Shown piece after piece: positions 13,806-24,157 of a stretch of 64,000 bases of DNA; position 1 is the stretch's first letter; each line of letters starts with the position of its first letter. Origin of the DNA: Escherichia coli (GTDB taxonomy: Bacteria > Pseudomonadota > Gammaproteobacteria > Enterobacterales > Enterobacteriaceae); the NCBI RefSeq assembly GCF_003334305.1, contig NZ_QOWS01000022.1. The stretch is one strand, 5' to 3'. Under the pieces are notes generated by a model. It was not told where the DNA came from and ran no database searches. It was given only the letters and a program-made list of their open reading frames with translations. Made by a program: the position numbers and the translations under genes.

Positions 13806-14513
13806 TTATTTCTCCGATTTAACCCCGAACAAATCATAAATTAATTTAGAAGTGTCTGTAAGTATTTTAATCTCTTCCTTTGAGGTTGGGTCAAACGACT
13901 TCGCGAAGCTAATTAATTGTGGTGCAGCATCTCGCATTTTGCTTAAAATATCAGGATCGAGCGTTCCTTCATTCACCAGATGTGACATCTTATCCAGATA
14001 GCCATCAAAATTCATTTCTCCCCCATCAGCCAGACGCTTCATCTCTCCCAGGTACTTCTTCATATCACGTTGAGATAATTTTTCAAACTGAGCTTTCAGG
14101 TAGCTCTCATTATTTTCATTAATATACACTGTTTCTGATAAATCTGCGTAGGCACTAGAATATGAAAGTGAAATTAACAGCGAAGCAAATAATTTTAAGC
14201 TGTTGTCATCATGTTCCTGGCAGGCATTAACAAACGTTAAAAAACCAGAACCTATTGCTTGAAAATGTATATTCGCTAAAGGTTCATTATCCTTAGATTC
14301 CTCATAAAATAGCTGAACCGTGGAGGGAAGGCCATTCTTAGTTTCTACATCAAAAGTACATTGTTCAATGGGAGTCGCATCTTTATTATCCCCAGGATTA
14401 CATATACTATTAATCGCGAAATGAAAAATAGCCCGGTCAACAACTGATGCAATAAAGTCACGATCGTTTAAATCCTCATCAGTGCAATCGTCAATATACT
14501 TATTGACCCACAT
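13806..14513 (-). CDS. yjbM: uncharacterised protein YjbM
   Basis: 235 aa from ATG at 14513 (MWVNKYIDDC...); AT-rich; no recognisable domain; same position as K-12 yjbM. Confidence 0.65.
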   Translation of the reverse strand: MWVNKYIDDCTDEDLNDRDFIASVVDRAIFHFAINSICNPGDNKDATPIEQCTFDVETKNGLPSTVQLFYEESKDNEPLANIHFQAIGSGFLTFVNACQEHDDNSLKLFASLLISLSYSSAYADLSETVYINENNESYLKAQFEKLSQRDMKKYLGEMKRLADGGEMNFDGYLDKMSHLVNEGTLDPDILSKMRDAAPQLISFAKSFDPTSKEEIKILTDTSKLIYDLFGVKSEK

Positions 14514-14536
14514 TTTGAGATCATTTATTTGCTCAA

Positions 14537-14791
14537 TTAAAAACACATTTTTTTACGTGCATGCCATAAATTATGCGTGATTCGTTGAATAAACAAATCT
14601 ATTTTTGCAATAATTATATCCCGATGACGCAGCGCTGCATAATCAATAGATTTACCATATATATTATTTAATTTACCTTTGATTGAACCTCTATTATCTA
14701 ATTTATCTTTGATTGCATCTTCATTATCGAATTGATTTGAATTGAGTGTTTTATTAAAGTATCCAGTTGCACCGGGTATTATCTTCAACAT
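14537..14791 (-). CDS. yjbL: uncharacterised protein YjbL
   Basis: 84 aa ORF immediately upstream of yjbM in AT-rich DNA. Confidence 0.6.
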
Positions 14792-15990: not shown

Positions 15991-17370
15991 TCACGTTGCG
16001 GCAAACCAGGTACCGTTGCGCCAGTGACGCCGCCAGATAGCCGCCAGAGAAAGCCCGCGCAACGCCAGAAAGACGGTTAATGCCAGCCACAAACCATGAT
16101 TACCCAGCCACGGCAGCGTAAGGAGCGTCAGCGCAAAACCTGCGGCGGCCACCGCCATACTGTTACGCATTTCGGCGGCACGCGTTGCGCCTATAAACAT
16201 GCCGTCCAGCAGATAACACCAGACGCCAACCAACGGCAAAATCACCTGCCAGATAAGATAGCGGTCAGCCAGCTGCTGAATCTGGGTTAACGACGTCAGC
16301 AACGCAATGATGTGTTCCCCTGCCAGCAAATAAACCACCGAAAACAGTAACGCTACAATCCCCGACTGGCGGCACGCTGCCCGCCATACATCCAGCAACT
16401 GGCTACCGTCGCGCGCACCGTATGCCTGACCGGAGTGCGCTTCAACCGCGTAGGCAAAACCATCAAGCGCATAGGCGGTAAAGGTGAGTAGCGTCATCAG
16501 AACCGCGTTAACAGCGATAATGTCACTCCCCAGTCGCGCACCAAGTACGGTGATCGCGCCGAAACAGAGTTGCAACAACAGCGAACGCAGCATGATATCG
16601 CGGTTAAGCGCCAGCAAGCGACGGAAGTTTCCTCGCCAGGCAGTTTTCAGTATTTCGCCGGAAATTCCGCGTAGTTTGAGGATTTTACGCACCATTAGCA
16701 GACCAATCAGCAATGTTGCATATTCCGCAATAACCGTCGCCAGCGCCGCGCCCTGCACGTTCATATGTAGCCCCATCACCAGCCAGACATCCAGCACAAT
16801 GTTGAGGATATTGCCGACCACTAACAAAATTACTGGCGCACGGGCATATTGCACGCCGAGTAACCAACCGAGTAATACCAGATTCGCCAGCGACGCCGGA
16901 GCGCTTAACCAGCGGATTTCAAGAAAGCGCCGCGCCTGTTCCAGGACCGCTTCACTACCGCCAACAATATGCAGCGCCAGATCGATAATCGGTGTACGCA
17001 GCAGCGCAATTAACGCCCCAGCCCCCAACGCCAACAGCAACGGTTGCACCAGCGCACGGGCTAATGCCTGAGGATTTTTGGCACCATAAGCCTGCGCAGT
17101 CAGCCCGGTGGTGCTCATGCGTAAAAACAGCAACAGCATAAAGAGAAAGCTGGTCGCCGTTGCACCAACCGCCACGCCGCCCAAATAAACCGGGCTATCA
17201 AGATGACCAATTACCGCCGTATCGACCAGTCCCAGCAACGGAACGGTGATATTGGAGAAAATCATGGGTAAGGCGAGATGCCAGAGTGCTTTATCAGATG
17301 AAGTGAGGAATGCCATGCAGACAAGCCTGATGAAGAGAGATGAAAAACAAACCGCGACGCCTGGCGGCAT
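15991..17370 (-). CDS. dinF: DNA damage-inducible MATE-family efflux protein
   Basis: 459 aa polytopic membrane protein, 18 bp downstream of lexA in the same operon. Confidence 0.9.
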   Translation of the reverse strand: MPPGVAVCFSSLFIRLVCMAFLTSSDKALWHLALPMIFSNITVPLLGLVDTAVIGHLDSPVYLGGVAVGATATSFLFMLLLFLRMSTTGLTAQAYGAKNPQALARALVQPLLLALGAGALIALLRTPIIDLALHIVGGSEAVLEQARRFLEIRWLSAPASLANLVLLGWLLGVQYARAPVILLVVGNILNIVLDVWLVMGLHMNVQGAALATVIAEYATLLIGLLMVRKILKLRGISGEILKTAWRGNFRRLLALNRDIMLRSLLLQLCFGAITVLGARLGSDIIAVNAVLMTLLTFTAYALDGFAYAVEAHSGQAYGARDGSQLLDVWRAACRQSGIVALLFSVVYLLAGEHIIALLTSLTQIQQLADRYLIWQVILPLVGVWCYLLDGMFIGATRAAEMRNSMAVAAAGFALTLLTLPWLGNHGLWLALTVFLALRGLSLAAIWRRHWRNGTWFAAT

Positions 17371-17388
17371 CGCGGTCTCAGAGATATG

Positions 17389-17997
17389 TTACAGCCAGTC
17401 GCCGTTGCGAATAACCCCAACCGCCAGCCCTTCAATGGTGAAGCTCTGCTGACGAAGGTCAACGACAATTGGTTTAAACTCGCTATTTTCTGGCAACAGT
17501 TCGACTTTATTGCCCTGTTTTTTCAGGCGCTTAACGGTAACTTCGTCATCAATACGTGCGACAACGACCTGACCGTTACGTACATCCTGAGTTTTATGCA
17601 CTGCCAGCAAGTCACCATCCATAATGCCGATATCTTTCATCGACATCCCGCTGACGCGCAGCAGGAAATCAGCATTCGGCTTGAACAAGGAAGGATCGAC
17701 CTGATAATGACCTTCAATATGCTGTTGCGCCAGAAGCGGTTCACCGGCAGCCACACGACCTACCAGCGGCAACCCTTCTTCCTCTTCCTGCAACAGACGA
17801 ATCCCGCGTGATGCGCCGGAAACAATTTCAATAACGCCTTTGCGTGCCAGCGCCTTCAGATGTTCTTCAGCCGCGTTTGGGGAACGGAACCCCAAACGCT
17901 GCGCGATTTCCGCACGCGTCGGCGGCATACCTGTCTGGCTGATGTGATCACGGATGAGATCAAACACCTCTTGTTGCCTGGCCGTTAACGCTTTCAT
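17389..17997 (-). CDS. lexA: LexA repressor
   Basis: 202 aa; [37 protein letters not shown]; autocleavage site region and S24 peptidase domain (SGMSMKD). Confidence 0.97.
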
Positions 17998-18003
17998 TCC
18001 GCC

Positions 18004-18023
18004 CCCTGGGTGTATATACAGTT
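18004..18023. promoter_or_regulatory. LexA box 1 of lexA promoter
   Basis: CCCTGGGTGTATATACAGTT contains CTGG-N8-ACAG, immediately upstream of lexA start. Confidence 0.85.
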
Positions 18024-18024
18024 A

Positions 18025-18044
18025 TGCTGTGAGTATATACAGCA
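18025..18044. promoter_or_regulatory. LexA box 2 of lexA promoter
   Basis: TGCTGTGAGTATATACAGCA, near-perfect CTGT-N8-ACAG palindrome. Confidence 0.88.
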
Positions 18045-18106
18045 AAAGGCGATTTTGGAACCATAAACTGCACAATAAACCAGAGATTTATCGAAATCTG
18101 GAAGGG

Positions 18107-22828: not shown

Positions 22829-24157
22829 TTAAACACCCTTATTCATTATACGATGAGCTCGCCAACTCGCAGTAAAAATGGGGAAAAGCGCATATTTACC
22901 ATGAGATTTGGAGCTGAAAAGTGTTTCCTGAGTAAGATTAACAGGCAACATCTCATGTCTGGATTTGTAGATATACGTGGAATTCCAATTGGTATCTTTT
23001 GTAGGATTCAACATATCATGTAAGCGCTGGGAGCTTACCACCATAACAGGCCCATCATCGACAGAGGAGAACAGGATAAATATATTATCGTTTCGTGTTA
23101 ATTTATTAGTGTTAAAGGTTCTTAACTTTTCTTCAGTTTCTATAAATATAGGTGAAACATCATCACTACGAATCCACTCTTTATAAAGATACCAGGCATT
23201 TGCTTTGATCATATCATCCGTTGATCGTAAGGCCTGATCGATAAGTTGGATAAAAAAATTGTTATTTTTATCAATCAGCCCTTTATTCATATTAAACCTG
23301 TTAATAAAATGGATCATCTGTTGGGTATCGAAATCCACCTTGCTGAATCGATGTTGACGCATAAAATCATCGAACTTGTTATCTTCACCAGAATGGATAT
23401 AACTGCGTATAATTGGATCTTTTATATAAGGACAATGGCTAAATGTTTTCTTCATATTCTCAATAAAGTTTTTATTAACAATATTAAGAATTTTTAATTG
23501 CATAACCAGTTTTACTGCCAGAACGGATTTCAATATCATTGCATTATCTGGCAATGTATCAATCATTTTTATAATGTTATTGATATAACCATCGAGATCT
23601 TCATTCCCAAATATATCTGAATAATCAATAGTTAATTCCAATTGTTCTGTAATGCAATCTTTAAAATTCCCTGTCGATATTCGCACATGATCAAACATAA
23701 CAGCTGTCATATTCGATTTAATAAATGATATTTCTTTGGCAGACAGAAACTCTGCTCTGGTGAAGTGCGAAGCGTAAAGATAACAATTATCGAAGTTTGA
23801 ATTTCTAATCTGACATTCGCGAAAATTACTCTGAGTAAGTTGACTCTGCGAGAAGTCAACTGTATCAAGAATATTTTTGCTGAAATCGACACATTCACCA
23901 CTCGCTTTGATAAAAATCACATTGTGTAAACGTCGACATCTAAATATGACATTATCAACTATTGCAGTAGTAAAATTGCAATCCCCAATTTCTTTACATT
24001 CGAATGTTACATGTTGTAGATTTGATGATAAAAAAGACACCTTCGATATAACGTCACCTTTAAAATGACAACTTGTTAAATCCAAATCAGACAGGTCGAT
24101 ATACCCCTGCGCATCTTTATCCATCAGAAAATTGCAAGCGCATTCAATTTTTTTCAT
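22829..24157 (-). CDS. yjbI: pentapeptide-repeat protein, SopA-effector-like
   Basis: 442 aa, AT-rich; N-terminal third has pentapeptide-type repeats (e.g. CHFKGDVISKVSFLSSNLQHVTFECKEIGDCNFTTAIVDNVIF); same position as K-12 yjbI. Confidence 0.65.
   Translation of the reverse strand: MKKIECACNFLMDKDAQGYIDLSDLDLTSCHFKGDVISKVSFLSSNLQHVTFECKEIGDCNFTTAIVDNVIFRCRRLHNVIFIKASGECVDFSKNILDTVDFSQSQLTQSNFRECQIRNSNFDNCYLYASHFTRAEFLSAKEISFIKSNMTAVMFDHVRISTGNFKDCITEQLELTIDYSDIFGNEDLDGYINNIIKMIDTLPDNAMILKSVLAVKLVMQLKILNIVNKNFIENMKKTFSHCPYIKDPIIRSYIHSGEDNKFDDFMRQHRFSKVDFDTQQMIHFINRFNMNKGLIDKNNNFFIQLIDQALRSTDDMIKANAWYLYKEWIRSDDVSPIFIETEEKLRTFNTNKLTRNDNIFILFSSVDDGPVMVVSSQRLHDMLNPTKDTNWNSTYIYKSRHEMLPVNLTQETLFSSKSHGKYALFPIFTASWRAHRIMNKGV

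Follow-up and report, generated by a model that had tools for sequence, protein, structure and literature searches.

Tandem LexA operators upstream of lexA in an Escherichia coli contig correspond to the known pair of SOS boxes of the lexA promoter

Few negative feedback loops in bacteria have been studied as thoroughly as the LexA autoregulatory module of Escherichia coli. Two SOS boxes have been described at lexA (PMC2994835), and a sequence has been published for each of them. One is listed as the lexA entry of strain MG1655, TTTGCTGTATATACTCACAGCATAA (Table 4 of PMC3009722), and is the box 1 described below; the other is listed under 'lexA, dinF' as ACTGTATATACACCCAGG (Table 7 of PMC3009722) and is the box 2. 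The two genes form one continuous transcript that is induced by UV, and the induction of lexA has been confirmed by RT-qPCR (Fig. 4 of PMC3009722). Likewise, ciprofloxacin induces lexA (PMC11002266), and dinF, which lacks an operator of its own, is co-transcribed with lexA (PMC6590174).

The window, by which is meant the whole 64-kb stretch of DNA that was analysed, carries this module at 15.9-18.6 kb. The region shows 100% identity to several E. coli chromosomes, and every complete E. coli genome searched, 5426 in all, has the locus. RefSeq names the genes in it dgkA, lexA, dinF, yjbJ, and zur; the order on the lexA strand, which is the minus strand of the window, is dgkA, lexA, dinF. A single assembly among the 5426 has dgkA-lexA-dinF on a record that bears a plasmid label instead of on the chromosome, perhaps through an oddity of assembly or labelling. 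An earlier note on this DNA had described tandem LexA operators here in the classic autoregulated lexA-dinF architecture, a description that is borne out by the identity of the locus, the match to the MG1655 sequence and the literature. Hence, the element is almost certainly the known pair of LexA operators, or SOS boxes, that belong to the lexA promoter of E. coli. Its parts, together with those of the promoter, are as follows.

18060..18055, minus strand: inferred -35 hexamer TTCCAA, assigned by sequence inspection, with a 17-nt spacer to TATACT
18044..18025, minus strand: LexA box 1, the promoter-distal operator, 20-mer TGCTGTATATACTCACAGCA, of the form CTGT-N8-ACAG
18042..18027, minus strand: 16-bp core of box 1, CTGTATATACTCACAG, which encloses the inferred -10 hexamer
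18037..18032, minus strand: inferred -10 hexamer TATACT, assigned by sequence inspection, inside box 1
18023..18004, minus strand: LexA box 2, the promoter-proximal operator, 20-mer AACTGTATATACACCCAGGG, of the form CTGT-N8-CCAG
18021..18006, minus strand: 16-bp core of box 2, CTGTATATACACCCAG, which fits CTG-N10-CAG
17997..17389, minus strand: lexA coding sequence, an open reading frame of 202 aa plus stop, named lexA by RefSeq and assigned to the NCBIfam equivalog TIGR00498

Read on the lexA strand, the 18001-18045 stretch up to the start codon is TTCCAAAATCGCCTTTTGCTGTATATACTCACAGCATAACTGTATATACACCCAGGGGGCGGA-ATG. Both boxes are imperfect palindromes of the form CTG-N10-CAG with TA-rich centres (ATATACTC in box 1 and ATATACAC in box 2), as the gammaproteobacterial SOS box with its consensus TACTG(TA)5CAGTA demands. 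The two cores are separated by 5 bp and lie 21 bp apart from centre to centre, and 8 nt separate the core of box 2 from the lexA ATG. The claim that the operators stand directly upstream of lexA is thus true on the lexA (minus) strand, the strand having been given inexactly. The earlier note had further written both boxes as CTGT-N8-ACAG; two adjacent LexA-type boxes do lie within 18001-18045, but only box 1 has this form literally, as box 2 ends in CCAG. The literal pattern has a single match in the 64-kb window, at 18027-18042, which is box 1, while the looser CTG-N10-CAG is matched by both lexA boxes and by 27 further sites. The bare CTGT-N8-ACAG is not significant alone because 40 of 100 shuffles contain at least one match as well, and since it is such a weak test, the full matrix was used.

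The matrix was a symmetrised PWM made from the 17 non-lexA SOS boxes of E. coli (Table 4 of PMC3009722), the lexA boxes being excluded, and the chance figures were taken from 500 base shuffles together with the exact score distribution. Box 1 scored about 19.2 bits and ranked first among the 64,000 positions, with a chance expectation of 0.012 per 64 kb; box 2 scored about 18.2 bits and ranked second, with a chance expectation of 0.024 per 64 kb. A scan of this kind had been proposed beforehand as the check on the operators, with scores below threshold as the outcome that would speak against them, and both boxes came out at the very top of it. The third rank was taken by a site that lay outside the training set and serves as an independent positive control.

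1118-1137, between the divergent uvrA and ssb: shared uvrA/ssb SOS box, TACTGTATATTCATTCAGGT, 17.3 bits

Three sites of at least 17 bits were therefore observed where 0.04 are expected per 64 kb, and the next match falls to 12.4 bits. That match, at 45434-45453, lies within the coding sequence of a slipin-family protein and is at chance level (0.7 per 64 kb). Similarly, a match of 10.9 bits at 32761-32780 runs across the start codon of xylE and is also at chance level (1.4 per 64 kb). The 17 reference boxes themselves, scored by leave-one-out, span 6.2-27.9 bits, and both lexA boxes are for this reason placed in the middle of the range. A heterology index of the Berg-von Hippel type, calculated from the same 17 sites, was 6.4 for box 1 and 8.0 for box 2; genes repressed by LexA are conventionally taken to lie below 15 (PMC11002266).

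The operator pair is strongly conserved within the species. The 45-nt operator stretch has at least 99% identity in 5339 of the 5426 E. coli genomes and 95-99% identity in another 77, and it was unmatched by megablast in the remaining 10. One divergent E. coli strain that was examined has three intergenic differences, all of which fall outside both 20-mers. Beyond the species, the tandem pattern CTGTATAT-N5-CAG-N5-CTGTATAT-N5-CAG was scanned against 100,044 species-representative genomes, where it was found at no fewer than 120 loci (at least 120), against about 0.03 matches expected by chance; as the pattern forces the half-sites, these figures tell where tandems occur and how well the unforced positions are conserved, not how often lexA lacks them. 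Among the matches listed, a LexA homologue of 66-100% identity begins on the same strand 7-18 nt downstream in 119 of 120, and the one other locus ends at the pattern. The taxa among the matches listed include many genera of Enterobacteriaceae, Budvicia and Pragia (Budviciaceae), Pasteurella and Bisgaardia (Pasteurellaceae), and an unclassified gammaproteobacterial MAG. The flanks of the more distant loci cannot be aligned, and both boxes, the 5-bp spacer, and the position before the ATG are retained there. Information content is 1.7-1.9 bits in the box columns that the pattern leaves unforced and 0.5 bits upstream of the -35.

The same alignments bear on the promoter. A generic sigma-70 consensus scan left the lexA promoter uncalled because its -35 fits TTGACA at only 3 of 6 positions, and with the scan silent the hexamers were therefore assigned by inspection and conservation. 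The GGTTCCAAAAT block is kept across the Enterobacteriaceae, and the sequence further upstream varies. The two Pasteurellaceae loci that were read (L026 and L035) have TATAAT at the -10 position of box 1. Conservation of this kind supports the assignment of TTCCAA and TATACT as the putative promoter hexamers, an assignment that also agrees with the promoter reportedly given in the 1981 lexA papers. Placed in this way, the -10 would lie within box 1 and the start of the leader under box 2.

The least improbable of the rival readings, although a very unlikely one, is that box 1 alone works as an operator, box 2 being a copy that is weak or in decay and contributes little. Box 2 deviates from the 20-bp consensus at 6 positions and has the half-site CCAG instead of ACAG, and in Salmonella the second lexA box was missed by a FIMO scan with the consensus (PMC8072944). 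Such a miss by a consensus-only scan arises because box 2 departs from the consensus; scored by the matrix, box 2 stands at about 18 bits, which exceeds the scores of the uvrA/ssb box and, under leave-one-out, of 6 of the 17 reference boxes. Moreover, about 100 distinct sequences among the matches listed share the sequence of box 2, the 5-bp spacing, and the distance to the ATG, and in Budviciaceae and Pasteurellaceae box 2 is closer to the consensus (CTGTATATAAAAACAG). The footprinting studies of 1981 reportedly found LexA protection at both lexA sites.

A third operator would make the pair a triplet, and to this we give even less credence. Upstream of the -35, at a distance of 26 bp from the box 1 core, the sequence at 18068-18083 fits CTG-N10-CAG; with a heterology-type index of 14.1, narrowly under the conventional limit of 15, it would be a weak third LexA site. 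However, the site (18066-18085) scores 6.8 bits and ranks eleventh, a level at which about 9 matches are expected per 64 kb by chance, and it has 10 mismatches to the consensus in 20 positions. The CTG-N10-CAG spacing is lost in Citrobacter, Klebsiella, and Kluyvera, and the columns carry about 0.5 bits each. The third operator was rejected on its chance-level score and its lack of conservation between genera. The idea that the same site is part of a terminator hairpin of dgkA was likewise unsupported, the folding z being -0.05.

That the palindromes arose by chance in an AT-rich promoter, or serve another regulator, deserves practically no weight: the bare CTGT-N8-ACAG turns up in 40 of 100 shuffles, yet this reading is effectively refuted by full-matrix scores far above chance for two matches 21 bp apart, by a tandem that precedes lexA in 119 of the 119 judgeable loci among the 120 listed, and by box sequences that are published LexA targets (PMC3009722).

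The reading of the pair as the two LexA operators of lexA leads to a simple regulatory model, for which we infer LexA binding, cooperativity, and repression at the boxes from the literature. As 21 bp is close to two helical turns, both boxes face the same side of the DNA. On established knowledge of LexA, each box would be bound by one dimer, the contacts being made by the winged-helix N-terminal domains. Binding of the two dimers may be expected to be cooperative and to block RNA polymerase at the -10 and at the transcription start; with the polymerase blocked, LexA would limit the synthesis both of itself and of the downstream product DinF. Upon DNA damage, RecA filaments on single-stranded DNA would stimulate the self-cleavage of LexA at Ala84-Gly85 through Ser119/Lys156, the boxes would be vacated, and transcription of lexA-dinF would rise. 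Once the damage signal is gone, fresh LexA would rapidly repress the regulon again. This model of derepression fits the reports that UV and ciprofloxacin both induce lexA.

The repressor that such a circuit needs is encoded by the window. Against NCBIfam TIGR00498, the model for the LexA repressor, an S24 self-cleaving peptidase, the LexA protein scores 289.5 bits (cut-off 110.95), with residues 1-199 placed on positions 1-202 of the 203-position profile. The open reading frame retains the Ala84-Gly85 cleavage site and the Ser119/Lys156 catalytic pair, and the protein is near-identical to solved structures of E. coli LexA, including the DNA complexes 3JSO, 3JSP, and 3K3R. Judged from its sequence, the LexA protein is intact, with the cleavage site and the catalytic residues present. 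According to the earlier note, the locus confirms that the SOS regulatory core is intact. This is so for the operators and for LexA, but recA, as the other half of the core, lies outside the 64 kb, and the statement therefore holds only for the LexA half.

Downstream of lexA, the distance to dinF depends on the start codon that is chosen, and the features that bear on it are the following.

17378..17349, minus strand: GC-rich stem-loop followed by UUUGUUUUU, terminator-like, with 13 pairs of which 8 are G-C
17370, minus strand: ATG start of the longest dinF open reading frame, 459 aa, which gives an 18-bp gap to lexA
17316..15991, minus strand: dinF coding sequence from the conserved start, which is Met19 of the long open reading frame; 441 aa in RefSeq, NCBIfam NF007690

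The dinF gene, which encodes a MATE transporter, is the next gene and lies on the same strand as lexA; dinF is the gene next to lexA in 51 of the 70 listed loci that have enough downstream sequence. A spacing of 18 bp between the two genes had been stated before, and this figure is correct for the longest open reading frame with its ATG at 17370, but the comparative start at 17316 gives 72 nt. DinF scores 909 bits against the NCBIfam equivalog NF007690, with residue 19 of the 459-aa open reading frame as the first to match the profile. Among 86 distinct orthologous lexA-dinF spacers, an ATG is found at the Met19 position in 74, and an ATG 18 codons upstream in only 3. The orthologous spacers are 58-277 nt long, with a length that is a multiple of three in only 28 of 86. 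As RefSeq, the NCBIfam model of DinF, and 74 of the 86 spacers all place the start at Met19, the lexA-dinF spacer is likely 72 nt long. The ATG of the long open reading frame (17370) sits inside the stem of the stem-loop, and the 459-aa annotation of DinF, starting within this hairpin, is probably wrong.

The stem-loop has a minimum free energy of -24.9 kcal/mol with z = -5.0, and none of 200 shuffles folds as well. Despite differing sequences, spacers with z of -2 or below are found at 74 of the 86 distinct orthologous loci. In appearance the element resembles an intrinsic terminator or an attenuator. Given the reported co-transcription of dinF with lexA, its simplest interpretation is a partial terminator or an RNA-stabilising hairpin. 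The conserved stem-loop would probably lower the read-through into dinF without abolishing it. It is a more speculative suggestion, and one we judge rather less likely than not, that it acts as a tuned partial terminator or RNA-stability element which sets the ratio of LexA to DinF, so that dinF would be only loosely coupled to lexA. The PWM scan of the lexA-dinF spacer found no LexA box for dinF.

Several further observations concern other parts of the window. The window is not collinear with strain RM10042 beyond about 6.4 kb, so for features away from lexA the coordinates were verified directly on the window. Between lysC and yjbD, at 43077-45969, there are three open reading frames; the annotation of RM10042 gives their counterparts as a zeta toxin family protein (plus strand), a nucleotidyltransferase-domain protein (minus strand), and a slipin family protein (minus strand). 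To our knowledge K-12 does not have these three open reading frames, and a PADLOC search of the three-gene island gave no meaningful match to a defence system. Two other regions differ from their annotation in RM10042 or show a split frame. The first, at 22829-24157 on the minus strand, is an uninterrupted open reading frame of 442 aa, the RM10042 counterpart of which is a 'SopA family protein' annotated as frameshifted. The second is the DUF2713 region at 13806-14791 on the minus strand, where the open reading frames 13806-14546 and 14537-14791 overlap in different frames; this two-frame structure fits the RM10042 annotation, where the region is a frameshifted pseudogene. Structured RNAs that scored above the Rfam gathering score include a lysine riboswitch just upstream of lysC (41301-41497), the sRNA STnc430 (39257-39406), and three copies of naRNA4 (29856-29926, 58870-58947, and 58968-59045).

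Taken as a whole, the lexA tandem operator is intact, ordinary, and already fully known. It raises no new question, and its value is that of a sanity check or positive control for motif scanning. The useful by-products are the corrected sequence of box 2, the shorter start of dinF, and the structured spacer between lexA and dinF.

The locus can be compared with other LexA-controlled promoters. With the lexA operators of E. coli K-12 MG1655 it shares the box sequences, the dgkA-lexA-dinF order, the spacing, and the distance to the ATG, and no difference is detectable. The promoters of recA, sulA, umuDC, and uvrA/ssb have the LexA motif and the promoter-blocking logic in common with lexA, but each of them has one box, whereas lexA has two, each of moderate strength in place of one near-consensus site. 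More than one LexA dimer per promoter is also expected at recN, which has three boxes, and at the colicin genes, which have two. However, the boxes of the colicin genes overlap each other and the three boxes of recN lie at spacings other than that of lexA, whereas the two boxes of lexA are separate, with a spacer of 5 bp between them.
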